A DNA stretch of 64,000 nucleotides from Escherichia coli (GTDB lineage Bacteria > Pseudomonadota > Gammaproteobacteria > Enterobacterales > Enterobacteriaceae), in NCBI RefSeq assembly GCF_003790525.1, contig NZ_CP033635.1; one strand, written 5' to 3'. The notes below the pieces were generated by a model. The model searched no databases. It had not been told where the DNA came from and was given only the letters and a program-made list of their open reading frames with translations. Below are positions 19,764 to 43,266 of this stretch, in pieces. Position 1 is the first letter of the stretch; every line of letters begins with the position of its first letter. The translations under genes were made by a program, and so were the position numbers.

Positions 19764-21394
19764 AGCATCCCCTCCAGCTCATCCAGATCCGCCAGAATCT
19801 CTTTTTCCAGATCTTTTAACCGCTTCAATATCACCTTCGGATCTTCATACTCCTCAGCCTGATACACCACTTCTTTATAACGATTAATAGAGAGATCGTA
19901 TTTCTGGGCAGCAATATCTTCTTTTGGCACTATAAACGCCGCCTGAGTGCGATCTTTAAAATCAACGCCAGCATCAATCCCTTCCGGGTACTGCTGTTTC
20001 AGCAACGAGGCTAACTTCTCACCCATAAAGTTATCAACCGGCAGCCCGCGTAAAGTACGGTAATGCTTCCAGCTTGCCAGCAGATGCGGCAGGTCGTTGT
20101 CTTTAATTGGGTTACGCTTGTCATCCAGGCTGTAGCCATCATTTTGCAGATCGTAGAACCAGACCTCGTCCGTCTGACCGCCTTTGGTAAAGATCAGGAT
20201 CGCCGTCGCCACGCCAGCGTAAGGTTTAAATACGCCGGAAGGCAGGTTGATCACCGCTTCCAGTTGGTTATCTTCCACCAGCGTTTTGCGAAGTGACTGG
20301 TGCGCCTTACTGGAGCCAAACAGCACGCCCTGCGGCACGATAGTGGCACTGCGCCCGCCCACTTTCAGCATTTGCAGAATACGCGCCAGGAACAGTAGTT
20401 CGGTTTTTTTGGTTTTCACCATTGCCGACAGCGTGGAGTCGATATCTTCTTCGTCCAGTGAACCGGTAAACGGCGGGTTTGCCAGAATCAGGTTGAAAGC
20501 GTTTTTACTGGCCTGCGGGAAGTTTGTGCTGAAGCTCTGGCTCATGGTGTCCTGATAGTGGATATCCGGCGCTTCCACGCCGTGCATAATCAGGTTCATG
20601 GCGGCGATACGTAACATTGTGGTGTCAAAGTCGTAACCGTGGAACATATTGTTATCCACATGGTTACGCCACGGGGTCAACAGATCGCCGGTAAAGATTT
20701 TTTGCTCTTCCAGCTCACCACGTTCGTTGGTGCCAATCTCGGTATGAATGGATTCCAGCGAGCTGTACTTCTCCAGTAGATATTCATAGCTGGTTGCCAG
20801 AAAGCCACCGGTGCCGCAGGCCGGATCGCAAATCGTCTCGCCGCGGGCGGGGTTCGGCTCCATCATTTCAACCATCGTGCGGATAATGTGGCGCGGTGTG
20901 CGAAACTGGCCGTTGATTCCGGCAGTGGTCAGCTTGCTTAACAGGTATTCGTAAAGGTCGCCTTTGGTGTCGCCGCGATCCAATGGCAGGTTTTTGATCA
21001 CCTCAACCGCTTTGGTCAGCAATGAAGGCTTAACAATCTCCAGACGGGCATCTTTCATAAAGTTGCCCAGCAGCGTTACCTTCGACGCATCAGCCTGGCC
21101 GAGCTGACGAAAATGCTGGAATACACCATCGCGCACCACTTCCATCATCTCATCCGAGCCAAGATTGCTATAGTGACTGAAACGGAACTCCTGCTGTTCT
21201 GGTGCAAAACGCGGTTTAAAATCAATACCCGCGATTTGTTTACGCTTCTCGTCGCGTTGTTCCTGAGTATCCAGCATCCGGGAATACATTAGATAGGTGA
21301 TCTGTTCGATTACGGTCAGCGGGTTGGTGATACCACCCACCCAGAAATCTTCCCACAGGCCGTCGATTTTACTTTTTAAGTCACCAGTGATCAT
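19760..21394 (-). CDS. hsdM: type I restriction-modification DNA methyltransferase subunit
   Basis: N6-adenine methylase motif [11 protein letters not shown]-binding region; 544 aa. Confidence 0.9.
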
Positions 21395-21457: not shown

Positions 21458-24400
21458 TTATACCGTTGCTGCGTCGGTCACAACACCCAGCTCTTCGACT
21501 ATCTTTTGTAGGCGGGCGATCTGCTCTATATCAGGGAACACACCGGTAACGCCTTCGTTGTGGATATGCGTAAAAGGCTGTTCAAAGAGCTGCCGCATTT
21601 CAATGGTGCCGTAATCGCGAATGTGGTTTTTCAGCAATGACAGGAAGCGCAATTGCTGGCTGGTCAGGCTGTTATCAGCGGCGAACTGAGCAAAGCGCAC
21701 TTCCACCGCGTCGCTGTCCATCCCGATGATGGTACGCAATAGTTTATCCAGGCTGGCGGTCGCCTGCGGGTAGAACTCTTTCAGTGCCCGGATATCAACG
21801 TTAGGGTTCTGGATCAGCACCAGTTTAGCCAGTTCATCCAGCTCGCTTTGCGTCACAGGCTCGCCGTTGCGGATTTTCTTCAGCACCGGATTTTGCTGGA
21901 ACAGCGGCTCCAGCGCTCCCTGCACCTGCTGGCGATAGAGTTTGAAGTCAATCGAGCGGATGTTGGTTTTGCGGTTTTCCGTCTGAATCAGGTTCGCATC
22001 TTCGGTAATATCCACCTGTATCGAACCAAATTTCGGCGTCGCGTCTTTTTCCATCAGGTGCATGATGCCGCGCAGATGAATGCGGATATCTTCCAGCTCT
22101 TCCAGGCTGGCCTGCTTCCACCAGCCTAAATCACGAAGCTGATTGATCCGCGGTCCTTGCTGTTGGACCTGCGCCAAATGCGGCGGCAGGCGCTCCACTT
22201 TTTCGACGATGACCGGCCAGAGCACATCCAGCTCTTCCGGGTTGGTATAACGGGCAGTTTGCGCCGCCAGAATATCCATATCAAAGCGCATAGCGTCGCT
22301 TTGCCCGCGCACGTCCAGCCACTGCATCAGCGGGGCCAGGACAGATAGCAAATCCTGCTGTGTTTTCGGGGAAAGCTGGCGCAGCACTTTTTCATCGCTG
22401 TACTGCGCTTTTTGATGCCACTTTTCCTGGACGGCAATCGACTTTTCATCCAGTGCATTGATTTGCTCGCGTAGCTGGTGAGCAACTAAATCCACCGCCT
22501 GTTTGTCGAATTTACGTTGCGCAGCGGCCCCCAGCATAACCCACGCTTCGAAGCGTTTTTGTGCAAGCGATTTTGTCGCTGTGACTTCGGCCTCTTCGGT
22601 ATGCAGTTCGTGATACTCAAAATTGCCCCAGTGATCGAAAATGCGGAATTTCTGTTTATCCAGAGGTTTGCCGTTATCGTCGTAACCGTACAACCCCGGA
22701 CAGAGGCGCGTACCACGGCCAATCATCTGCCAGAACTTCACTTTTGATTTGACCGGTTTGGCAAAGACCAGATTCACAATTTCCGGGACATCAATACCGG
22801 TATCGAGCATGTCAACGGAGATAGCGATGGTCAGCTCTTTGTTGGTGCTTTCATCCAGCCCTTTAAAATCATCAATCAGTTGCTCGGCGCGGGGATCGTA
22901 ATTGTCGATGACCTGGCAGAAGCGCCCGGCAAACTGCGGGTACATATCGTCGAATAATTCATTCAACAGCAGCGCGTGTTTGTGGTTACGGGCGAAAATG
23001 ATGGTTTTACCTGGCAACTGGCCGTCCCGATCTTTCAGGCCATTTTCCATCAGGTTACGCAGGATATAGCGGTTGGTGTCTTTGTTGTAGATCGCCTCAT
23101 CCAGCGCCTTGCCATCAAACTCCAGCGTATTGGGATCTATGCCTTGTTCTTCCAGCTCGCGGATTTGTGCGTCGCTTAATTTCTCCCGTTTGATGCCTTC
23201 GCGCAGGAATTCTGTGGTGTGCGTGACAACCTCATAGGGAACCAGATTGTTATCGGCGATGGCATCTTCCAGGCTGTAGTTGGCGGTAGGAATACGTCCT
23301 TCACAACCAAACAGGCCGAAAGTGGTTTTACTCACCATGTCAATCGGCGTGGCCGTCAGGCCAATCTGGAGGGCATCAAAATACTTAAACAGATCGCCGT
23401 AAACGTTGTAGATAGAGCGATGGGATTCATCGGCGATGATCAAATCGAAATAACCAACATCGAAATGGTCCATGATTTTCATCATACCAGGATAGGTGGC
23501 GATGTAGATCCTAGCATTCTGCCTGTCTGCTTTTTTCGATTTCCCGACCACATACAGCGGCTCATTGGTGAATTGATTAAAGGCATTCGCCGCCTGTTTA
23601 CGTAGTTCCTTGCGGTCGCAAAGAAACAGGACGCGTTTTACCCAGCGGGCATCAATCATTAGTTTGCTTAGCGCTATTGCCACGCGGGTTTTGCCTGTAC
23701 CCGTAGCCTGAACAATTAGCGATTGCCGGTATTTGTTGGTAAACCGCTCGCTGACACGGGCAATGGTTTCAAGCTGGTACAAACGTCCGGCAACGGCCTT
23801 ACCTTCGTTATCTTTTACGTGCGGCACACTGTTCAGCGGAAGACGGGTTTCACGCTGTTGAATAAGATATTGCAGGCTTTCCTTGCTGTAGAAGCCAAAC
23901 ACCCGACGCGGGGGATAACCATGAGTTTTATGGTCATCCCACAGCCAGATATCATAGCCGTTGGTGTAGAAGATGATCGGACGCTGGTCGTATTCTTTTT
24001 CCAGCCAGTCTGCATACAGCCGGGCCTGAATTCGTCCTTGCTCGGCATTGACGCTGGTTTTTTTTGCTTCCACCACCGCCAGCGGTTTGTGTGCCTCATC
24101 CCACAAGACATAGTCCGCATAACCGTCTCCGGTCGCGGTAGGTTGTTCTTTAACGGGATGTTCCTGCGTAACCTGATCGGTATTTTTAAGGCCTTCGCCT
24201 ACATTCCAGTCAGCAGCAAGCAGGCGAGAGTCAATCAGGCGACGGCGGGTTTCCGCTTCATCAATAGAGAGAATATCGGCAACATGCTGGTTACGCGCTC
24301 TGGCTTCATTCAGGCGTTGAGTGAGGTGTTCGGCCTTTTCCTGTTCTTGCTGTAGTGCGCGTTGCAGCGCCAGTTCGCGCTCACGGCTTTCATCCTGAGC

Positions 24401-24874
24401 CCTGATTGCATCTTCCAGACGTTTTTCATCTGCACGACCTGAAGATTGTGTTAATGGAGGGAGTGTAAATTTGGGGCAGTCATCAACATTACCGTGGGCG
24501 TAGCGAACATACAGCCAAATTCCCAACAAATACGCTTCTTTGAGCAGCCAGTAAGTATCTTTAGCTTTGATACGTCCGCCGTGCGCGGCACGGTTGCCAT
24601 GGATACGCAGCGCATCCATTTTCATGATGATGGCTTCCGGCATCATGCTGGTAAAGACATCAGCATTCATTAAATCGTAAAGATTAGCCTTAATACCTTC
24701 CGGCAACCGCTCCTGACGATACAACCAGCGCACCATCAATTCGGTGTAGTTGCGCAGCTTGACCAGACAACTTTCCGGATCGGAGTGAACATAGCGTTCC
24801 GCCATACACGCGAGTTCAGCCAGTTCCGGCCACTGGCTGCGCAACATTTCAAAATTGAGAGACTGCTCCATCAA
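21458..24874 (-). CDS. hsdR: type I restriction enzyme R subunit (helicase/endonuclease)
   Basis: 1138 aa; SF2 helicase motifs (ATGTGKT, DESHRS) and N-terminal nuclease region. Confidence 0.9.
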   Translation of the reverse strand: MMEQSLNFEMLRSQWPELAELACMAERYVHSDPESCLVKLRNYTELMVRWLYRQERLPEGIKANLYDLMNADVFTSMMPEAIIMKMDALRIHGNRAAHGGRIKAKDTYWLLKEAYLLGIWLYVRYAHGNVDDCPKFTLPPLTQSSGRADEKRLEDAIRAQDESRERELALQRALQQEQEKAEHLTQRLNEARARNQHVADILSIDEAETRRRLIDSRLLAADWNVGEGLKNTDQVTQEHPVKEQPTATGDGYADYVLWDEAHKPLAVVEAKKTSVNAEQGRIQARLYADWLEKEYDQRPIIFYTNGYDIWLWDDHKTHGYPPRRVFGFYSKESLQYLIQQRETRLPLNSVPHVKDNEGKAVAGRLYQLETIARVSERFTNKYRQSLIVQATGTGKTRVAIALSKLMIDARWVKRVLFLCDRKELRKQAANAFNQFTNEPLYVVGKSKKADRQNARIYIATYPGMMKIMDHFDVGYFDLIIADESHRSIYNVYGDLFKYFDALQIGLTATPIDMVSKTTFGLFGCEGRIPTANYSLEDAIADNNLVPYEVVTHTTEFLREGIKREKLSDAQIRELEEQGIDPNTLEFDGKALDEAIYNKDTNRYILRNLMENGLKDRDGQLPGKTIIFARNHKHALLLNELFDDMYPQFAGRFCQVIDNYDPRAEQLIDDFKGLDESTNKELTIAISVDMLDTGIDVPEIVNLVFAKPVKSKVKFWQMIGRGTRLCPGLYGYDDNGKPLDKQKFRIFDHWGNFEYHELHTEEAEVTATKSLAQKRFEAWVMLGAAAQRKFDKQAVDLVAHQLREQINALDEKSIAVQEKWHQKAQYSDEKVLRQLSPKTQQDLLSVLAPLMQWLDVRGQSDAMRFDMDILAAQTARYTNPEELDVLWPVIVEKVERLPPHLAQVQQQGPRINQLRDLGWWKQASLEELEDIRIHLRGIMHLMEKDATPKFGSIQVDITEDANLIQTENRKTNIRSIDFKLYRQQVQGALEPLFQQNPVLKKIRNGEPVTQSELDELAKLVLIQNPNVDIRALKEFYPQATASLDKLLRTIIGMDSDAVEVRFAQFAADNSLTSQQLRFLSLLKNHIRDYGTIEMRQLFEQPFTHIHNEGVTGVFPDIEQIARLQKIVEELGVVTDAATV

Positions 24875-25450: not shown

Positions 25451-26022
25451 ATGACCAATTCAGCACACCAGCGACTGGATATGGCGGGAAATGGTGGCCC
25501 GGGGGTTACAGGCAGTGAAACCATCGTCAGGGATGCTGTTGCCAAATGGCGTAAAGGCTGGAACCCACCAGTTACTACTGCCGCCAGACTTCCTTCAGTG
25601 TCCCGGGTAAGCCGCTGGTTGATGCCCTGGATAATAATCAGGGGTGAAGAAAATTATGCTTCCCGATTTATTAGTCTGATGTGTGAAAAAGAACCGGCGC
25701 TGAAAATAGCGCAGCAACTAGTACTTGAGTTCTACCGTATTCTGAAAACCCCAAATAAATCAAATCTAAGCAGTTGGTTCACTCGAGTCCACGAAAACGG
25801 TTCAGCAGAACTTCGGCGCGTGGCTGCGGGGATGGAAGCTGATGCTGCGGCTATATGTGAGGCAACCAGCAGCCGCTGGAGTAACGGTGTTGTCGAAGGT
25901 CATGTAAATCGCCTGAAGATGCTGAAACATCTGATGTATGGTCGAGCCGGATTTGAACTACTTAGGCAGAGGGTAATGAGTCCACTGGCATGAAAATCTC
26001 CACCTAGGTTGCGGAAGAGCCA
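25451..26022 (+). pseudogene. ISL3-family transposase C-terminal fragment with right terminal repeat
   Basis: ...WSNGVVEGHVNRLKMLKHLMYGRAGFELLRQRV is ISL3 transposase C-terminus; ggttgcggaagagcc near 26008-26022 resembles ISL3 terminal repeat; 5' part of element missing. Confidence 0.55.
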
Positions 26023-26292
26023 CTTTTGCACCGTTCGTGATAATACCGTAAATAAGCCTCTGAAAGTTATAGGATATGACACAACTAAAGAAGTCTGTGT
26101 GAACCGCGTAATACCAAGTGAATTGCTTGTTATATCTGTTTAATTAAACCTAATCGACCAGCCTTACTGGAGAGGCTGGTTAGTGATTAACTGGGAGTAT
26201 TGCAATTAGATGTGTTCTACAGGCCCACGAAGGTAGATGGCTGCCAGAGTTCATCTTCGCGTGTAAAAGACTCTTAGTTGATTAATTCTAAT

Positions 26293-26559
26293 TTATCGAT
26301 CTATTACGCGATCATAATATTCGATGATTTGCAGTGCAACAGCAGCAATTTGTACTGCTTCCTCCCTACTGGTACCGGCTGCTTTACCACCAAAACGATC
26401 ATGGAGGACAGCCTGATGAAATTCTCCCACCTCTTCTCCGAGAATCGCTCCCCAGATAAAAGGATCTTGATTACGGTCTGCCCCCCATTTGGCATCCTGC
26501 CGTTGCATTTCCGCTAGCACGTCAGACAGGGCTTTAGTGTCTTGATGTTTACCTTTCAT
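26293..26559 (-). CDS. MazG-like nucleotide pyrophosphohydrolase-domain protein (small)
   Basis: About 88 aa from internal ATG; WGADRNQDPFIWGAILGEEVGEFHQAV resembles MazG EExxE helix. Confidence 0.4.
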   Translation of the reverse strand: MKGKHQDTKALSDVLAEMQRQDAKWGADRNQDPFIWGAILGEEVGEFHQAVLHDRFGGKAAGTSREEAVQIAAVALQIIEYYDRVIDR

Positions 26560-26702
26560 GTTTCCCTTACGAATCCGTGATTTTAAGTCCATCATTAACA
26601 TTTAATATGTGCAGAGTCCATTAATTCGCTACATCTCATTTTGTGAATGAGCGTTGAGTTTGCTATAAACGTAGCAACCAAGAAAAATAAAAGTGGATAA
26701 TT

Positions 26703-27029
26703 TTGTTCATTACCTTTCAAAGCAAGAAGTTAAGGACTATTTGCGAGAGTATGCATGAGGCAAATGAGATCTTTGGTGACAAAGTGGCATCAAGACTACG
26801 CTCGCGACTTTCCGATCTTTCCGTGACAGACAACATATTACTGTTGCCCGTAGGTTCGCCGGAGGTCTGCTTTGAGGATGGGGAAGAGTGTATTACAATT
26901 ACCATTCTCGGTGATGTAAAAATGGGATTTGTCTGTGGGAATACAGTTCAGCCCAAAAATCAAGATAATACAATTAACTGGTCCCGAGTTAGCCGGATAC
27001 GGTTAGTGTTCATAGGTGACGTGAAATGA
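26703..27029 (+). CDS. HigB-like (RelE/ParE superfamily) putative toxin
   Basis: 108 aa; N-terminal FQSKKLRTICE...VASRLRSRLSDL pattern resembles HigB (FKHKGLKRL...KLRRIL); 4-nt overlap with downstream HTH-peptidase gene. Confidence 0.35.
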   Translation: MFITFQSKKLRTICESMHEANEIFGDKVASRLRSRLSDLSVTDNILLLPVGSPEVCFEDGEECITITILGDVKMGFVCGNTVQPKNQDNTINWSRVSRIRLVFIGDVK

Positions 27030-28108
27030 TAGTTACGCAGGACTTCCAGCCTGACTGGGTATCTCCACCCGGTGATACAATTATAGATCTAATGGATGAA
27101 CATGGGCTTTCTGGTGAAGAACTGAGTAAGAGGATTGGATTGTCTCTTATCCGGGGTCAGCAACTTCTTGAAGGAAAAATCCGACTCAATGAGTCTCTGG
27201 CTTGTAAGCTTGAGGAGTTATTCAACGTATCGACAGACTTCTGGATCAAGCGCGAAGTCGCTTATCGCCAGCAAATTGGATACCTCGAGAAAGTGAATAA
27301 TGATTGGCTCGAATCATTGCCTGTACGTGATATGATGGAGTTTGGTTGGATCCCCAAAACTACAACTCGGGAAAGTAAATTCCAGCACTGCCTATCGTTT
27401 TTCGGAATAAATTCCGTCAATGATTTTTTTTATAAAATTCAGTCAGATGCTCCTTTGGTCGCTTTTCGTAAATCTCTTAATCTGGCAACCGAGCCTATGG
27501 CCGATTTGGTGTGGCTGACTAGGGCTGCACAACTTACCTCAAACCAAAACTGTGCTGTATGGGATAAAGAGGGGCTGATAGCATTGTTGCCAGAACTGCG
27601 CAAAGCTACAAATGAACCCGACATGAGGATTTTTATCCCTTACATTCGCGACCTTCTCGCCACTGCTGGAGTTTCTCTCGTTGTGTTGCCAACGCCAAAG
27701 GGATGTCGGGCAAGTGGTGCTACCTGCTTTTTTACACCAGATCGCGCAACCCTAGTCATGAGTTTCCGTTATCTGACCGATGACCATTTTTGGTTTACGC
27801 TGTTTCATGAGATTGGGCATCTCATCTTGCATGAAGCTGTCCGAGTTCGCGTAGAAGGTAAAGATAGTCTTTCGTCGGAAGAGGAAAAGGAAGCAGATAA
27901 ATTTGCCGTTGATGTTCTTATCCCAGAAGAATACCGGCAGCAACTTAGTCGCTATGGTGTCCGGCATTGGAAAGAGATCATCCGGTTAGCTAGGAAAATG
28001 GGGGTATCCAAAGGGATCGTACTGGGATATTTGCAGCATGAAGGTAATATACCTTTTTCTCACCTTAATCGGTTTAAAGTGAGATTCCGTAAAGAAGATA
28101 TCGTCTGA
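27026..28108 (+). CDS. HTH (XRE) domain fused to ImmA/IrrE-family zinc metallopeptidase
   Basis: N-terminal HTH (GLSGEELSKRIGLS), C-terminal HEIGHLILHEA (HEXXH) with downstream acidic residues; 360 aa. Confidence 0.7.
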   Translation: MIVTQDFQPDWVSPPGDTIIDLMDEHGLSGEELSKRIGLSLIRGQQLLEGKIRLNESLACKLEELFNVSTDFWIKREVAYRQQIGYLEKVNNDWLESLPVRDMMEFGWIPKTTTRESKFQHCLSFFGINSVNDFFYKIQSDAPLVAFRKSLNLATEPMADLVWLTRAAQLTSNQNCAVWDKEGLIALLPELRKATNEPDMRIFIPYIRDLLATAGVSLVVLPTPKGCRASGATCFFTPDRATLVMSFRYLTDDHFWFTLFHEIGHLILHEAVRVRVEGKDSLSSEEEKEADKFAVDVLIPEEYRQQLSRYGVRHWKEIIRLARKMGVSKGIVLGYLQHEGNIPFSHLNRFKVRFRKEDIV

Positions 28109-28110
28109 TA

Positions 28111-29055
28111 TCAGCCGCCGAAATAGACATAACGGTCAGGTGATTTCTGCCAGTTGCACAACGCATCTTCAATAACCTGCATTCTCAAGTAGGGTGCAGG
28201 AATAATTGCCGCAAGGTCAGCTAGTTTTTCATTCAATACGTCTATTGTGTCACCAGCAGTCCGGCTATTGCTGAAAAGTAGCCGGCTTCCTTGAAGGGGC
28301 CCGGTTGCTCCATTCAGAAAAGCATGACCCGGCTCTACATCCAGAAGTCCCGTTTTCTTGAGCATAGTTAGGTAATCAAATTTTGCGGTTCGTCCAAATG
28401 AGATCACGGCATTTAGCCCTGAATACAATAGTTCGAATAAAGATTCTGGTGAAGATGAAAAGCTCTTGGCCTCTGCAAACCTAGCCTCATGACTGTGTGT
28501 AGCACCAATGAATCCGATGTAAGAGCGAAAAACCGCAGGTATTGAACGACGAGAGTGATATTTCTTCGTTTCATATTTCCGATGGTTACCATATTGTCTT
28601 AGGCTACTGTTAGCTGTCAACTCATCAGAGACGCTGGCGAACCATTGTTCAAAAGCAGCAAAGTCATCAGTTATCGTATCCCATGTCCACGTTTGTGTAC
28701 CGAGTCCACTGTATATATCTCGACACAAAATCCAGCCGGTTTTGTTACTCTTGCCGAAATGTGTGGCAAGGAAAACCAGCCAGCAGGCTTCATCGTAATT
28801 GTTGTCACGAAGATAAAGGCAGGCAGCGCGGAGAGGATCAAAAACATCAGAATTCGGCTCTTTTCGTAACGGAGTCATATAATCGGTCCGTAATGCAAGA
28901 GTTTCCACATAGCGTATACGACGTATACTGTCGATAATCTGACAGGCTAAAACATCAAAGCAGGCAGGAGAACTTAGGCCATTTAGGTTGTGTTCATTGC
29001 GGCTAAAATTTTGCAAATTACTAACCAGCTGACTGATTTGATTATGTCTTTTCAT
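28111..29055 (-). CDS. hypothetical 314-aa protein co-operonic with thymidylate-synthase-like gene
   Basis: 4-nt overlap with upstream TS-like gene; no family recognised by eye. Confidence 0.5.
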   Translation of the reverse strand: MKRHNQISQLVSNLQNFSRNEHNLNGLSSPACFDVLACQIIDSIRRIRYVETLALRTDYMTPLRKEPNSDVFDPLRAACLYLRDNNYDEACWLVFLATHFGKSNKTGWILCRDIYSGLGTQTWTWDTITDDFAAFEQWFASVSDELTANSSLRQYGNHRKYETKKYHSRRSIPAVFRSYIGFIGATHSHEARFAEAKSFSSSPESLFELLYSGLNAVISFGRTAKFDYLTMLKKTGLLDVEPGHAFLNGATGPLQGSRLLFSNSRTAGDTIDVLNEKLADLAAIIPAPYLRMQVIEDALCNWQKSPDRYVYFGG

Positions 29056-30032
29056 TGTAGTCTTCCTTCAAAAATAAACCGATATTCCTGATTTTTCATT
29101 GCAGCCAACTCTTGGAAGGCTAGTCCTTTGTGGTTGGGTGTATGTGAACGTAACAAAAAGTGGATTTTTAATATACGCAATAAATCCTTCCAGTAGTCAT
29201 TCAAGGAAGTAGTGTCAATATCAAATTCCTTATTCTCTCGAAGAGCTTTTTCTGCCTCAAGCAGGGGTAAGATATCATCTAAGGAATGCATTTCAGGCAT
29301 CGATCCCATGACTGGTAGGGTGCTCATGAACCCCTCTTTCTGAAGAGCCTTCACTTTTTCTAAATCATTTTTATAGAGATGTAGGCTGGATACAAAGTGA
29401 TGATAGTGACCCAATTCGCATCCTATCAAGCGGGCAACTAATTCCTGTAGCATCGTGAACGCAAATACATCATGAGGCAGCCCCATAAAGGCATCGTTAG
29501 AACGCATACAAACAAATAGATGCAGCTCTTCACATCTGACAATAAACTGCATAGATATTGTACAAGGAATATCTACGTATTCTCGCTGTTCAGTTTTTGA
29601 GGGCACCAAGTCTGAGGCATCGAAAAGCTGTATTACTGCACGTCTGGTAGGTTTTTTCTCCTGCAAAAGGTTGATAACATTTTTTAGCTGATTATATAAA
29701 CCACGCATATTAAACAACCGTGGCCCGTAACCACCATGTATTTTCCCATCTGACTCAGCGGATTCAGCGTAACGTGGTATGAAGTGTTTTATAAACTCAA
29801 GATCGTTCTGAGCTGAGAGATACCACAGAAATTCACCTAAGCAACTAATTAGTTTTCCTCGGGATTCTGTTCTACTTATTCTTCGGCGGGGGTCGGTAAG
29901 GACAAGATAGGCACCAAGAATCTCTAGAGTTGATCCTTTTGTAGGATCGTTACTGAGTCCATCCGCTAGGATAGCTTGATGAACATCGTTTATCAGATCG
30001 TCAACACACTCAGCCGTTACCAAAAGAGTCAT
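29052..30032 (-). CDS. thymidylate synthase / pyrimidine hydroxymethylase family enzyme
   Basis: Catalytic-Cys region DIPCTISMQF (cf. PCHxxxQF), MRSNDAFMGLPHDVF (cf. RSxDxFLGLPFN), LHLY; 326 aa, longer than ThyA. Confidence 0.7.
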   Translation of the reverse strand: MTLLVTAECVDDLINDVHQAILADGLSNDPTKGSTLEILGAYLVLTDPRRRISRTESRGKLISCLGEFLWYLSAQNDLEFIKHFIPRYAESAESDGKIHGGYGPRLFNMRGLYNQLKNVINLLQEKKPTRRAVIQLFDASDLVPSKTEQREYVDIPCTISMQFIVRCEELHLFVCMRSNDAFMGLPHDVFAFTMLQELVARLIGCELGHYHHFVSSLHLYKNDLEKVKALQKEGFMSTLPVMGSMPEMHSLDDILPLLEAEKALRENKEFDIDTTSLNDYWKDLLRILKIHFLLRSHTPNHKGLAFQELAAMKNQEYRFIFEGRLQ

Positions 30033-30199
30033 TTTCTACCTTTTCCTGTATGGTAGTAACTAATCATTACCACCTGTATGGCATATAGTCAATATAGTAT
30101 CAATATCAACATGGTTCACAGGGTAAGTAAGACTTGATCTTACCCAGCAATAGTGGACACGCGGCTAAGTGAGTAAACTCTCAGTCAGAGGTGACTCAC

Positions 30200-30498
30200 A
30201 TGACAAAAACAGTATCAACCAGTAAAAACCCCGTAAACAGCATTCGCCTGAATTTCTCAGTGAAGCCCTGAAACTTGCTGAACGCATCGGTGTTGCTGCC
30301 GCAGCCCGTGAACTCAGCCTGTATGAATCACAGCTCTATGCGTGGCGCAGCAAACTGCAGCAACAAATGAGTTCGTCAGAGCGTGAAAGTGAACTGGCCG
30401 CTGAAAATGCCTGCCTGAAGCGGCAACTGGCGGAGCAGGCAGAGGAACTGGCTATCCTCCAAAAGGCCGCGACATACTTTGCGAATCGTCTGAAATGA
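30200..30498 (+). pseudogene. insE: IS3 orfA, apparently frameshifted
   Basis: From ATG 30200 the frame stops after 23 codons (MTKTVSTSKNPVNSIRLNFSVKP*); the OrfA-like body (KPRKQHSPEF...ATYFANRLK*) is in another frame; an A-run is one base shorter than expected. Confidence 0.55.
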
Positions 30499-40171: not shown

Positions 40172-40750
40172 TCAGGACCGCTGCCGGAGCGCAACCCACT
40201 CACTACAGCAGAGCCATGTAGACAACATCCCCTCCCCCTTTCCACCGCGTCAGACGCCCGTAGCAGCCCGCTACGGGCTTTTTCATGCCCTGCCCTAGCG
40301 TCCAAGCCTCACGGCCGCGCTCGGCCTCTCTGGCGGCCTTCTGGCGCTCCTGCTGCGGCGTCCGCTCGTGGGCCGTGGCGCGGGTCCGCGCGCCGGCCTC
40401 GTGCGCCTGGCGCTCGCGGGCGAGGTCCAGGGCGGCCGTCTTCACGTTCTGCCTTGCGCAGATGAGATAGATCTAGCGTGGACTCAAGGCTCTCGCGAAT
40501 GGCTCGCGTTGGAAACTTTCATTGACACTTGAGGGGCACCGCAGGGAAATTCTCGTCCTTGCGAGAACCGGCTATGTCGTGCTGCGCATCGAGCCTGCGC
40601 CCTTGGCTTGTCTCGCCCCTCTCCGCGTCGCTACGGGGCTTCCAGGGGTCGTTTGCGGGAAGGGGCGGAATCCTACGCTAAGGCTTTGGCCAGCGATATT
40701 CTCCGGTGAGATTGATGTGTTCCCAGGGGATAGGAGAAGTCGCTTGATAT

Positions 40751-41587
40751 CTAGTATGACGTCTGTCGCACCTGCTTGATCGCGGCCGCGATAGCTAGAT
40801 CGCGTTGCTCCTCTTCTCCATCCGCGTTCCAAGCTGCGGAAAGGCACCCATAAGCGTACGCCTGGTCGAGCAGGCGACGCGGATCGACGTCCAGCGCACG
40901 AGAGAATGCGTCCGCCATCTGTGCAATGCGTCTAGGATCGAGACAAAGGTCGTCTCTGTCAGCCGGATCGTAGAACATATTGGCGGCGCCAAAGCCCACT
41001 TCACCGACCAGACCGACGGGATCTATCACCAGCCAGCCGCGACTGGAGAACATGATGTTTTCATGATGCAGATCGCCATGTAGCCCACGCAGTTCCGAGG
41101 CATTGCTCATCATTTGATCGGCTATAATCGCCGCGTGGACGTAGTCAGTTTGACAACCTGCGTTTTGATCATCGCGCGCCCGCTGAAACAAAGCTGCAAA
41201 GCGATCCCGGATCGGGAGAAGGGCAGAAGGCAGGGGTTCCTCAGATGCGGCATACAGCTTCGCCATTAGTTCCGCTGCAATTTCGGTCGCCTGGTAGTCG
41301 CCGTGCTCGGCAACGATGTGAGAGAGCATTCGCTCCCCGGCATATTCGAGCAACATCAGATTGTTCTCACGACCGAGCAACCGGACTGCTCCCCTCCCAT
41401 TGCGCCATACCAGATAGTCGGCCCCGCGCAGTTCATCAGCAATGTCTTCTATAGGTTTCAATCCCTTGACGATTGCAGGAGTCCCGTCTGGCAATGAAAC
41501 TTTCCAAACGAGGCTGGAAAAGGTGTCCGCAATGAGAACAGGTTGCGAAACGTGCCAATGAGCAGGAAAAACAGGCGGCATGAACAT
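40751..41587 (-). CDS. strB: aminoglycoside 6-phosphotransferase APH(6)-Id
   Basis: MFMPPVFPAHWHVSQPVLIADTFSSLVWKVSLPDGTPAIVKGLKPIEDIADELRGADYLVW... Confidence 0.95.
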   Translation of the reverse strand: MFMPPVFPAHWHVSQPVLIADTFSSLVWKVSLPDGTPAIVKGLKPIEDIADELRGADYLVWRNGRGAVRLLGRENNLMLLEYAGERMLSHIVAEHGDYQATEIAAELMAKLYAASEEPLPSALLPIRDRFAALFQRARDDQNAGCQTDYVHAAIIADQMMSNASELRGLHGDLHHENIMFSSRGWLVIDPVGLVGEVGFGAANMFYDPADRDDLCLDPRRIAQMADAFSRALDVDPRRLLDQAYAYGCLSAAWNADGEEEQRDLAIAAAIKQVRQTSY

Positions 41588-42390
41588 CAACCCCAAGTCA
41601 GAGGGTCCAATCGCAGATAGAAGGCAAGGCGTTCGCGGTCGGGGGCTTCGATCCCCAATACATTGAATAGGACAGCGAAGGCGCGCTCTGCTTCATCTGG
41701 CGCTGCCCAGTTCTCTTCGGCGTTAGCAATCATGAGTGCCAAATCGGCATAGCGATCTGCTGTTCCGAGCCGCCCAAGGTCGATCAGACCCGTGCATTGA
41801 AGAGTTTTAGGGTCCACCATGAAGTTCGGCATGCAGGGATCACCATGGCAAACAACCATATCGGTGCGCTCTTGGTCGAGCCGCACCGGTAGCTCTCGTT
41901 CGACACGAGCCAAAAGATCGAGCTGCGGCGTACTCTTGTCCTCGTCCGGTAAGAAGTCGGGATTGACGGCATTGCGGGACACCACATCAACGGCGCGTCC
42001 GAACATTCGCGACAGCCTGCGCTCAAACGGACATTGATCAACCGATAGGCTGTGAACAGCGCCAAGTTGCTGCCCCATTGACGGCCACGCTTTGAGCAAA
42101 TCCGCTCCAGACAGATCAGCCGCCGGTACTCCCGGAATTGCCGTTATCACCAAGCATGCACCCTCCTGTTCCTCCTGCCAGTTGATGACCTCGGGGCAAG
42201 CCACACCTCGACCTTTGAGCCAAATGAGGCGGTCACGCTCTCCAGCGAGCTCACCGCGGCGGGAAGCAGGTGCGATTTTCGCGAAGGCATGCCCGTCACC
42301 ACGTCGAAAAACAAAATCACCAGATTCTCCGCCTCTGACAGGCAACCAGTCAGAATGCGATTCACCAAAAAAAATATTAGTTCGATTCAA
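41587..42390 (-). CDS. strA: aminoglycoside 3''-phosphotransferase APH(3'')-Ib
   Basis: MNRTNIFFGESHSDWLPVRGGESGDFVFRRGDGHAFAKIAPASRRGELAGERDRLIWLKG... Confidence 0.95.
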   Translation of the reverse strand: MNRTNIFFGESHSDWLPVRGGESGDFVFRRGDGHAFAKIAPASRRGELAGERDRLIWLKGRGVACPEVINWQEEQEGACLVITAIPGVPAADLSGADLLKAWPSMGQQLGAVHSLSVDQCPFERRLSRMFGRAVDVVSRNAVNPDFLPDEDKSTPQLDLLARVERELPVRLDQERTDMVVCHGDPCMPNFMVDPKTLQCTGLIDLGRLGTADRYADLALMIANAEENWAAPDEAERAFAVLFNVLGIEAPDRERLAFYLRLDPLTWG

Positions 42391-42450
42391 TGGAGGTTCC
42401 TTCAGTTTTCTGATGAAGCGCGAATATAGAGAAATATCCCGAATGTGCAG

Positions 42451-43266
42451 TTAACGAATTCTTGCGGTTTCTTTCAGCGCCGCCAATACCGCCAGCCCGT
42501 CGCGCAAGGGGCGCGGCTCGTGTGTGCGGATGAAGTCAGCTCCACCTGCGGCGGCGGCAAGCTCTGCAGCGAGTGTCGCGGCCCCGACATCCCCCGGACC
42601 ACGGCCTGTGAGCGCGCGCAGAAAGGATTTGCGCGAAACAGACAGAAGCACCGGCAAATCGAAGCGCAGCCGCAATTCATCGAACCGCGCCAGCACCGAG
42701 AGCGAGGTTTCGGGAGCAGCCCCCAGAAAAAACCCCATGCCGGGATCAAGGACAAGGCGGTTGCGTTTGATACCGGCTCCCGTCAGCGCCGCGATGCGCG
42801 CGTCAAAGAACGCCGCAATGTGATCCATGATGTCGCCAGCGGGTGCCTCGCGCCGATCTGCCTGCCCGTCTTGCACCGAATGCATAACGACGAGTTTGGC
42901 AGATGATTTCGCCAATTGCGGATAGAACGCAGCGTCTGGAAAACCGCGAATATCATTGAGATAGGCCACACCACGCGACAAGGCATAGGCTTGCGTCGCG
43001 GGTTGATAACTGTCGAGCGAGACGGGAATGCCATCTGCCTTGAGCGCGTCCAGCACCGGCGCGATACGCGCGATTTCTGTGTCGGACGAAACAGGCGCGG
43101 CGTCGGGATTGCTGGATGCCGGACCGAGGTCGATCACATCTGCCCCCTCGGCCATCAGCTTACGCGCCTGCGCAATGGCTGCGTCTGGCGCCAGATACCG
43201 GCCTCCATCGGAGAAACTGTCCGAGGTTATGTTGACGATGCCGAAAATGATGAGCGATTTATTCAT
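42451..43266 (-). CDS. sul2: sulfonamide-resistant dihydropteroate synthase
   Basis: MNKSLIIFGIVNITSDSFSDGGRYLAPDAAIAQARKLMAEGADVIDLGPASSNPDAAPV... Confidence 0.95.
   Translation of the reverse strand: MNKSLIIFGIVNITSDSFSDGGRYLAPDAAIAQARKLMAEGADVIDLGPASSNPDAAPVSSDTEIARIAPVLDALKADGIPVSLDSYQPATQAYALSRGVAYLNDIRGFPDAAFYPQLAKSSAKLVVMHSVQDGQADRREAPAGDIMDHIAAFFDARIAALTGAGIKRNRLVLDPGMGFFLGAAPETSLSVLARFDELRLRFDLPVLLSVSRKSFLRALTGRGPGDVGAATLAAELAAAAGGADFIRTHEPRPLRDGLAVLAALKETARIR

Follow-up and report, generated by a model that had tools for sequence, protein, structure and literature searches.

A predicted dCMP hydroxymethylase, an aGPT-Pplase clade 3 protein and a toxin-antitoxin-like pair are linked in one mobile four-gene cassette of Escherichia coli and other bacteria

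A 64,000-nucleotide stretch of DNA from Escherichia coli (RefSeq assembly GCF_003790525.1, contig NZ_CP033635.1; the whole stretch is called the window below) carries, between positions 26703 and 30032, two gene pairs which are one obligately linked, horizontally mobile four-gene cassette of 3.4 kb. One pair encodes an enzyme of the thymidylate synthase (TS) fold, predicted to act on deoxycytidine monophosphate (dCMP), and a member of aGPT-Pplase clade 3 (hereafter Pplase3). The other pair, convergent to the first, resembles a toxin-antitoxin (TA) module. We see an even chance that the cassette is a nucleotide-targeting anti-phage system of the abortive-infection type, which tampers with cytosine nucleotides. 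The locus appears to be built from known kinds of parts in a new combination, with a chemistry that we infer from its residues. An initial annotation had placed four open reading frames (ORFs) exactly where we find them, and had suggested a module for DNA-base modification or nucleotide targeting under a damage-sensing regulator; that observation holds, and the interpretation is supported in part and can be sharpened. The cassette consists of the following features:

26703-27029, + strand: small ORF of 108 aa with a TTG start, encoding a protein with a RelE/HigB fold
27026-28108, + strand: XRE-type helix-turn-helix (HTH) domain fused to an M78 (ImmA/IrrE) zinc peptidase, 360 aa (Pfam, PADLOC)
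28111-29055, − strand: Pplase3, 314 aa, like an amino-acid:DNA transferase (AADT), with a helix-hairpin-helix glycosylase-like fold
28138-28182, − strand: conserved C-terminal Pplase3 motif MQVIEDALCNWQKSP, residues 292-306, with a putative catalytic Glu/Cys dyad
29052-30032, − strand: TS-fold enzyme of predicted dCMP-hydroxymethylase type, 326 aa

Both pairs share a 4-nt ATGA overlap, at 27026-27029 between the small ORF and the M78 gene and at 29052-29055 between the TS and Pplase3 genes, the latter confirming the earlier reading that the TS stop overlaps the start of the 314-aa protein. The convergent stop codons of the M78 and Pplase3 genes are separated by 2 nt. The locus is chromosomal, and bases 26200-30400 match many complete E. 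coli genomes at 100% identity. RefSeq annotates three of the four cassette genes; the conserved 108-aa ORF is unannotated in the E. coli records examined. Because homologues of all four ORFs are found in the same order in about 80 species, we take them to be under selection rather than due to chance.

The two pairs had been described as lying beside each other; a survey of one genome per species shows that they belong to one linked unit. The 80 loci fetched represent at least eight phyla, the cassette being found in Proteobacteria, Bacteroidota, Acidobacteriota, Chloroflexota, Planctomycetota, Verrucomicrobiota, Actinomycetota and Myxococcota, and the clade 3 protein was present in at least 219 species in the scan. 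The order is TS, Pplase3 and then, convergently, M78 and the small ORF, and it is maintained amid unrelated flanks in V. cholerae, Bradyrhizobium, Providencia, Shewanella and an uncultured bacterium (metagenome contig). Among loci whose contig extends far enough, the TS gene is present in 75 of 76 and the M78 gene in 78 of 78, and the small ORF is detectable in most fetched loci. The 3' ends of the Pplase3 and M78 genes overlap in 35 of 81 loci and lie no more than 10 nt apart in 38 others (73/81 in total). A search started from the peptidase again led to the cassette, within which M78 homologues at 39-43% identity were found. Furthermore, the pairwise-distance matrices of TS, Pplase3 and M78 correlate with each other (Mantel r 0.68-0.75, with 0 of 500 permutations as high), and the cassette genes therefore travel together. 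For this test we used all-against-all distance matrices in place of identity to the E. coli proteins, which alone gave only weak correlations. Among the four proteins, conservation is highest for the M78 protein, which gives the lowest phmmer E-values at most of the more closely related loci. The cassette comprises four genes, or five in some loci, and the E. coli version is without the extra gene.

Within E. coli, the cassette occurs at ≥99.8% identity in 231 of 5,426 complete genomes (4%) and was absent from the 72,556 plasmids searched. Four E. coli records match it at just 60-80% identity, which suggests a second, divergent copy or variant within the species. Its E. coli island contains a type I restriction-modification (R-M) operon, an ISL3 remnant, IS3, a dGTPase, pap remnants and a resistance region, while in other bacteria the neighbours include Shedu, GmrSD, Mrr, NYN, HipA, Zeta toxin, type I R-M systems, integrases and P4-like satellites.

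The 326-aa protein matches Pfam Thymidylat_synt (PF00303, E 6e-25). As the initial annotation had read it, the protein retains the catalytic Cys (C157) and the RSxD, GLP and HLY motifs and is longer than ThyA, the excess being a C-terminal extension. All eight NCBIfam ThyA models score it below their cut-offs (108-576 bits), the best giving 81.4 bits against a cut-off of 327. Its best PDB match is the CMP 5-hydroxymethylase MilA (E 1.6e-41), over residues 26-304 and including the C-terminal helical extension, whereas thymidylate synthases in the PDB reach only 1e-18 or weaker. To place the enzyme by its diagnostic residues, for which criteria were taken from PMC5175136 and PMC13326640, we aligned 79 cassette homologues with E. 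coli ThyA (reference sequence verified against PDB 1aob), T4 gp42, M6 gp58 (a dUMP hydroxymethylase) and the TS of the E. coli defence system DS-4. The key residues of the cassette enzyme are E67, Y102, R130/R131, D154, C157, T158, R177, S178, D180, D188, H218 and Y220. Those responsible for the chemistry are kept, E. coli ThyA Cys146, Glu58, Arg166, Tyr94, His207 and Tyr209 corresponding to C157, E67, R177, Y102, H218 and Y220, and their equivalents are found in 79 of 79 homologues, except for that of Glu58, found in 78. In fold and chemistry residues the protein thus belongs to the thymidylate synthase superfamily.

The residues that set the substrate differ from those of ThyA. Asn177, which recognises uracil, is replaced by Asp in all 79 homologues (D188 in the E. 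coli cassette), and Leu143, which excludes water, by Asp or Glu in 69 (D154). An Asp at 177 is the cytosine signature common to T4 gp42 and MilA, and an acidic residue at 143 is the signature of an open, water-admitting hydroxymethylase (PMC5175136, PMC13326640). His147 is replaced by Thr (T158), as in T4 gp42, and the determinants of deoxyribose are retained, Ser167 in 79 of 79 homologues (S178) and Arg126 in 71 (R130). D188, D154, S178 and R130 are identical to the gp42 residues in the same alignment. The cassette enzyme therefore shares with gp42 and MilA the catalytic Cys and Glu, the Asp at 177 and the acidic residue at 143, and with MilA also the C-terminal helical domain; the MilA ribose-preference residues Ala176 and Lys133 are not present, the aligned positions being occupied by Ser178 and Arg130. 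Unlike gp42 and MilA, it is encoded outside a phage replication gene set or an antibiotic cluster. Because Asn177 and Leu143 are replaced and the deoxyribose-type determinants are kept, dCMP is the predicted substrate and the enzyme is not expected to make thymidylate. The NCBIfam scores, the MilA match and the diagnostic residues all favour a pyrimidine hydroxymethylase over ThyA, as had been proposed, and we predict that it is specifically of the dCMP-hydroxymethylase type.

The second enzyme had been singled out for comparison with the aGPT-Pplase family, and it belongs to clade 3 of that family: Pfam PF18746 matches it with an E-value of 5.5e-90 (residues 34-313 on model positions 4-278 of 279), Pfam ADDT (PF18724) matches it as well (E 1.1e-58), and some RefSeq records carry the aGPT-Pplase name. 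The family is bacterial and counts 3,903 database proteins at E ≤ 1e-5; a tblastn search of 50,697 phage genomes with Pplase3 returned no match. The comparative-genomics papers of Iyer et al. 2013 and Burroughs et al. 2015 are said to have first described these families. In an alignment of 32 diverse homologues the C-terminal motif reads MQV(L/I)EDALCNWQKSP, with E296, D297 and C300 invariant, and it aligns with 'QEVETVLCKW' of phage M6 gp51, in which the Cys and the neighbouring Glu are essential for glycine transfer to 5-phosphomethyl-dU in DNA (PMC8989533). The catalytic Cys of PaMx11 gp46 is C247 (PMC11472151). Pplase3 thus has the features of the AADT type, a Cys with a neighbouring Glu and a two-helical-bundle glycosylase-like fold, and phage transferases with this fold swap the C5 (phospho)hydroxymethyl group of a pyrimidine for an amine. 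The characterised aGPT-Pplases all belong to clade 2, no clade 3 member being characterised in PMC8989533 or PMC11472151. When the clade 3 profile was aligned by hhalign with the single M6 gp51 and gp55 sequences, the probability was 1-4% and the C-terminal motif alone was aligned, so that the tie between the two clades rests on the Pfam ADDT match, the motif and the fold.

The convergent pair had been read as a HigB-like ORF translationally coupled to an HTH-ImmA protein, and the XRE-HTH-M78 protein and the 4-nt coupling stand. The 360-aa protein matches Pfam Peptidase_M78 (2.4e-10) and HTH_3 (0.0015), and its peptidase site is intact, with the motif HEIGH at residues 261-265 (nt 27806-27820); the HExxH is kept in 80 of 81 cassette M78 homologues. 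The PADLOC model PD-Lambda-2_B covers it nearly in full (E 8.7e-30, residues 15-341 on model positions 60-378 of 402), and weaker matches over the peptidase region were found with capP (1.7e-10) and RmrA (4e-10). By these matches, the 360-aa protein is homologous to PD-lambda-2B, a component of a validated defence system. The likeness of the 108-aa protein to HigB is one of fold only, seen by structure comparison. Neither the protein nor its 32-sequence profile matched anything in Pfam, NCBIfam, PADLOC, PHROGs or a PDB profile search; there was no Pfam match at E ≤ 10 and no match to PADLOC PD-Lambda-2_A even at E 10, and the label HigB-like was rejected on sequence grounds. Its sequence closes with ...FIGDVK, R11 and C14 alone are invariant, and neither the families nor the catalytic residues of the HigB/RelE mRNA interferases are found in it.

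In PD-lambda-2, a HigB-like first gene precedes an HTH-peptidase gene whose product is toxic alone and rescued by the first, and a third, P4-antitoxin-like gene is required for defence only (PMC9519451). The cassette has the same arrangement of an upstream HigB-fold gene overlapping an XRE-HTH-M78 gene, but its convergent two-enzyme operon takes the place of the third component; no match to a model of PD-lambda-2C was found among the seven main ORFs at 25.4-32.7 kb. Combinations of an XRE HTH with an HExxH M78 peptidase are also known from ImmR/ImmA, CapH/CapP and RmrA of Rosmer (COG2856); here, unlike in those systems, HTH and peptidase are fused and are paired with a RelE-fold protein. The initial annotation had regarded the HTH-ImmA protein as a regulator. 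As its PD-lambda-2 homologue is itself toxic, the role of the HTH-M78 protein may go beyond regulation (PMC9519451).

The enzyme pair had been compared with phage hypermodification pathways, and the parallel holds for the kinds of enzyme. In phages M6, ViI, PaMx11 and PhiW-14, thymidine is hypermodified by a dUMP hydroxymethylase, a 5-hydroxymethyldeoxyuridine (5-hmdU) DNA kinase and an aGPT-Pplase of clade 2 (AADT). It does not extend to the base or to the kinase: the cassette enzyme is of the cytosine type (Asp188), which makes the thymidine pathway an analogy rather than the pathway itself, and no homologue of the M6 5-hydroxymethyluridine (5-hmU) DNA kinase gp54 was found in the window or in 92 loci at phmmer E ≤ 0.01, a single-sequence search of limited sensitivity. 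The cassette also has no slot for a pyridoxal phosphate, radical-SAM or FAD tailoring enzyme. Finally, it resides in bacterial chromosomes and satellites, always tied to the TA-like pair, unlike the phage pathways, and clade 3 was not found in the phage genomes searched.

Prior work bears on the function. In Table S10 of DefensePredictor (Science 2026, PMC13092281), WP_000174035.1, which is exactly the TS protein of this cassette, is listed as a 'Predicted novel defense gene' with a log-odds of 7.63, and Fig. 6F and Fig. S12A of that paper show a predicted, unvalidated aGPT-Pplase system. The same study validated as defensive DS-4, a different TS-containing E. coli system composed of a TS, a deoxynucleoside monophosphate (dNMP) kinase, a 5-hmdU DNA kinase, a TIR protein and NMAD (PMC13092281). 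Like the cassette, DS-4 is from E. coli and centres on an enzyme of the TS fold whose residue at position 143 is acidic. It differs in that its TS is just 29% identical, and of the uracil type, since Asn177 is kept, and in that it has kinases and a TIR effector and is without an aGPT-Pplase and an HTH-M78 pair. The cassette would thus so far have been flagged by a machine-learning predictor only, although an earlier mention in the founding family surveys may exist.

The defence reading draws on the linkage of the four genes, the residues of the enzymes, the PD-Lambda-2_B match, the defence and mobile-element neighbours, the DefensePredictor listing and the validation of DS-4. Gene content, obligate linkage, active-site residues and folds are observed directly; in the scheme that we propose for substrate, product, trigger and role in defence, the TS-like enzyme would convert dCMP to 5-hydroxymethyl-dCMP, on which Pplase3 would act without a kinase, either at the nucleotide level or on DNA, to give a further C5-substituted cytosine derivative. 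Formation of this product would divert or poison the supply of deoxycytidine nucleotides for phage replication, and the TA-like pair would restrain the enzymes until infection. Defences based on dCTP deaminase and dGTPase act by nucleotide depletion. The cassette would resemble them in the proposed removal of a deoxynucleotide needed for phage replication, and would differ from them in its C5 modification of dCMP, its four genes and its TA-like control pair.

Several points weigh against this defence reading. dCMP lies off the main route to dCTP in uninfected E. coli, so that depletion would matter mainly for phages which recycle host DNA or make dCMP. PADLOC has no model for the two cassette enzymes. 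In its degree of conservation the cassette equals many metabolic operons, and it may have a role outside defence. As to the chemistry, homologues of the TS fold with N177D and L143E can be flavin-dependent 5-hydroxylases (PMC13326640), and addition of a hydroxymethyl group cannot be separated from addition of a hydroxyl group on sequence alone. The aGPT-Pplases of clade 2 act on DNA, with a phosphate leaving group provided by the 5-hmU DNA kinase; as this phosphate-installing kinase was not found, the second step is chemically unproven. Lastly, the HTH-peptidase of PD-lambda-2 is itself toxic, and the roles of effector and controller could be reversed (PMC9519451).

A narrower version of the defence reading, which we put forward only tentatively, is that of a substrate-gated sensor-effector with kinase-independent hypermodification of cytosine nucleotides. 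dCMP, scarce in healthy cells, would become available through degradation of host DNA or hydrolysis of dCTP by phages, and would be turned into 5-hydroxymethyl-dCMP by the TS-like enzyme. From this, Pplase3 would make a new C5-aminoalkyl or adducted deoxycytidylate, which would act either as a poison of DNA synthesis or as a signal that turns on the HTH-M78 peptidase. If true, clade 3 would receive its first assigned function, and both the enzymatic reaction and the way in which infection is sensed would be new.

A related possibility, which we regard as doubtful, is that the roles are indeed reversed, the HTH-M78 protein being a toxic effector held by the HigB-fold protein and the two enzymes a sensor. 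A nucleotide present only during infection, for instance dCMP produced by breakdown of host DNA or by a phage dCTPase, would be modified by the enzymes, and its modified form would activate the peptidase. The toxicity of PD-lambda-2B alone, its rescue by PD-lambda-2A and the need for the third gene in defence only (PMC9519451) fit such an arrangement, as do the M78 protein being the best conserved of the four, its HExxH kept in 80 of 81 homologues and its divergence, which tracks that of the enzymes. However, beyond the HTH and M78 domains, Pfam identified no ligand-binding domain in the 360-aa protein.

The fold of Pplase3 brings up another explanation, namely that the cassette places a hypermodified cytosine in the host chromosome as an epigenetic mark or as protection from a nuclease. 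The closest solved structure to the fold binds double-stranded DNA and flips a base into its pocket (PMC11472151), other fold neighbours are mostly DNA glycosylases, and the family was defined from DNA hypermodification pathways (PMC8989533). Against such marking of self DNA, which we judge improbable, the TS fold acts on mononucleotides, and the cassette is without a dNMP kinase, a 5-hydroxymethyl DNA kinase or a conserved cognate nuclease and has no conserved flanks.

We think it quite improbable that the two enzymes make a pyrimidine antimetabolite, by hydroxymethylation of a cytidine nucleotide and subsequent release or transfer of the base, in the manner of MilA/MilB in mildiomycin and BcmA/BcmB in bacimethrin synthesis. 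MilA is the best solved relative of the TS-like protein, C-terminal domain included, and one of the fold neighbours of Pplase3 is Qng1/DUF2419, an enzyme that cleaves a nucleoside monophosphate. The ribose determinants are nevertheless of the deoxy type (Ser178, Arg130) and not the Ala and Lys of MilA (PMC5175136). The Glu/Cys motif of the AADT type is retained in Pplase3, genes for a methyltransferase, a kinase or export are not linked to the pair, and the cassette lies in mobile and defence contexts with a TA-like pair.

A functionless remnant of a prophage DNA-hypermodification pathway is very improbable. Phages are where TS-fold hydroxymethylases and aGPT-Pplases are best known (PMC8989533), and the TS-like protein matches PHROG thymidylate-synthase families (1.6e-43), but Pplase3 had no tblastn match in the phage genomes and the phage TS homologues are at most 33% identical. 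Moreover, four intact genes are conserved across phyla with no phage structural genes nearby, and the E. coli cassette is ≥99.8% identical in its 231 genomes. It is hardly credible that an ordinary thymidylate synthase lies here beside a housekeeping gene and a TA pair to which it is unrelated: the RefSeq name 'thymidylate synthase' is outweighed by a score of 81 bits against a cut-off of 327, by the replacement of both Asn177 and Leu143 and by the four-gene linkage across phyla.

The kinds of enzyme that help phages to disguise their DNA are seen here the other way round: they belong to bacterial chromosomes and satellites, are of the cytosine type and are coupled to a TA-like pair, with the kinase not found. 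If the cassette is defensive, nucleotide-targeting immunity would gain a new kind of chemistry beside those of dCTP deaminase and dGTPase, and aGPT-Pplase clade 3, a family of thousands, would have its first function. The A/B pair of PD-lambda-2 would then be a module which can be combined with different partners. With a length of only 3.4 kb, a presence in 4% of complete E. coli genomes and clear catalytic residues, the cassette lends itself to a direct test.

The genes and regions that flank the cassette in E. coli are:

26293-26601, − strand: RefSeq 'MazG-like' protein, 102 aa, divergent from the small ORF and outside the core cassette
26602-26702, + strand: intergenic region between the small ORF and the divergent MazG-like gene
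30033-30134, − strand: remnant of the region upstream of the TS operon, about 100 bp up to the left end of IS3 (promoter scan)
30045-30053 and 30073-30081: 9-nt direct repeat CCTGTATGG flanking the predicted −10
~30135-31400: IS3 copy whose insertion point is about 100 bp upstream of the TS-like start codon; for strain 2-1, RefSeq gives it as a frameshifted pseudogene
31491-32744, + strand: dGTPase of the stand-alone anti-phage type, 1.4 kb from the cassette beyond IS3

The MazG-like and dGTPase genes had been taken to give the cluster a theme of nucleotide metabolism, which proves to be mostly coincidence. The dGTPase (PADLOC dGTPase 1.5e-109; TIGR01353 316 bits against a cut-off of 152) scores above the cut-off for a general dGTP triphosphohydrolase and below that of NCBIfam antiphage_dGTPase (284 against 400 bits). 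It was rejected as a member of the cassette, being absent from all 92 other loci and separated by IS3, and is independent. The MazG-like gene adjoins the cassette in E. coli, Enterobacter (L015) and Providencia (L007-L009) only, all Enterobacterales, and is a lineage-specific accessory. Its 102-aa product had no match in Pfam, NCBIfam or the PDB, so that the MazG identity was not reproduced; it matches PHROG 24212 (function unknown) and is 67-70% identical to hypothetical proteins of the jumbo phages Erwinia pEa_SNUABM, Serratia BF, Pectobacterium CBB and Yersinia fHe-Yen9. The idea that it could supply dCMP from dCTP, like T4 gp56, is speculation, given the unreproduced MazG identity and a linkage confined to Enterobacterales.

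The junction between IS3 and the cassette is present in all of the best-matching E. coli genomes listed, and a 65-bp piece (30060-30124) is found alone in one cassette-free genome (NZ_AP040249). A promoter-like site was left intact by IS3, with a −35 TTGACT at 30092-30087 and a −10 AATGAT at 30068-30063, both hexamers being conserved in the Enterobacter locus. The repeat CCTGTATGG, only partly conserved in Enterobacter, could be an operator or due to chance, as two-copy 9-mers often are. By eye, a promoter-like TTGTGA-17 nt-TATAAA can be picked out at about 26641-26669, in the region upstream of the small ORF, and is at best a putative site; the automatic scan rejects it because the last base of the −10 hexamer is not T. 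Rfam and transfer RNA scans of the region found nothing.

The extra gene of some cassettes encodes a protein of about 265 aa and lies between TS and Pplase3 in 27 of 76 cassettes (for example L020:1388-2188 and L086:4516-5304). Over 3,400 homologues of this family are in the database, each of them named 'hypothetical', and its invariant motifs include GLNPS, CHLDLxP and NHNxQSS. It had no match in Pfam, NCBIfam, PADLOC, PHROGs or a PDB profile search. On account of its GLNPS...NHN motifs it was considered as a member of the uracil-DNA glycosylase superfamily, for which neither these searches nor an hhalign comparison with E. coli Mug gave support. Two further families recur beside the cassette: 8 loci have a DUF4031 protein, in most cases just upstream of TS, and 7 have a protein family of about 137 aa on the far side of the small ORF (examples L031:4707-5084, L096:9841-10164; L087:9407-9826).

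Elsewhere in the island of the window we noted the following features:

10664-12235, − strand: PDC-M40B-like protein
12282-13361, − strand: PDC-M09A-like protein
13410-14306, − strand: WYL-domain regulator
16094-18612, − strand: genes for a 540-aa AAA ATPase and a 313-aa protein
18621-19763, − strand: hsdS of the type I R-M system
19760-21394, − strand: hsdM
21458-24874, − strand: hsdR
25451-25993, + strand: ISL3-family transposase fragment, C-terminal part only, between hsdR and the MazG-like gene
~35000-43000: high-GC block (GC 56-63%)

The three co-oriented genes at 10664-14306 match candidate-defence models, and the PDC-M40B-like protein is named 'ATP--cob(I)alamin adenosyltransferase' by RefSeq. 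Directly downstream of hsdS and co-oriented with it, the segment at 16094-18612 has a GC content of about 32%; its AAA ATPase scores with the PADLOC models PDC-M55A (1.4e-40), NsnB (3.2e-37) and AriA (5.5e-22), and the 313-aa protein is without any match. Appended to the R-M operon, these two genes are a candidate defence pair. In the near-identical strain 2-1, the high-GC block carries ISCR2, floR, tet(A)/tetR, aph(6)-Id, aph(3'')-Ib and sul2, and a resistance region has therefore been inserted in the same island, beside the pap fimbrial remnants.

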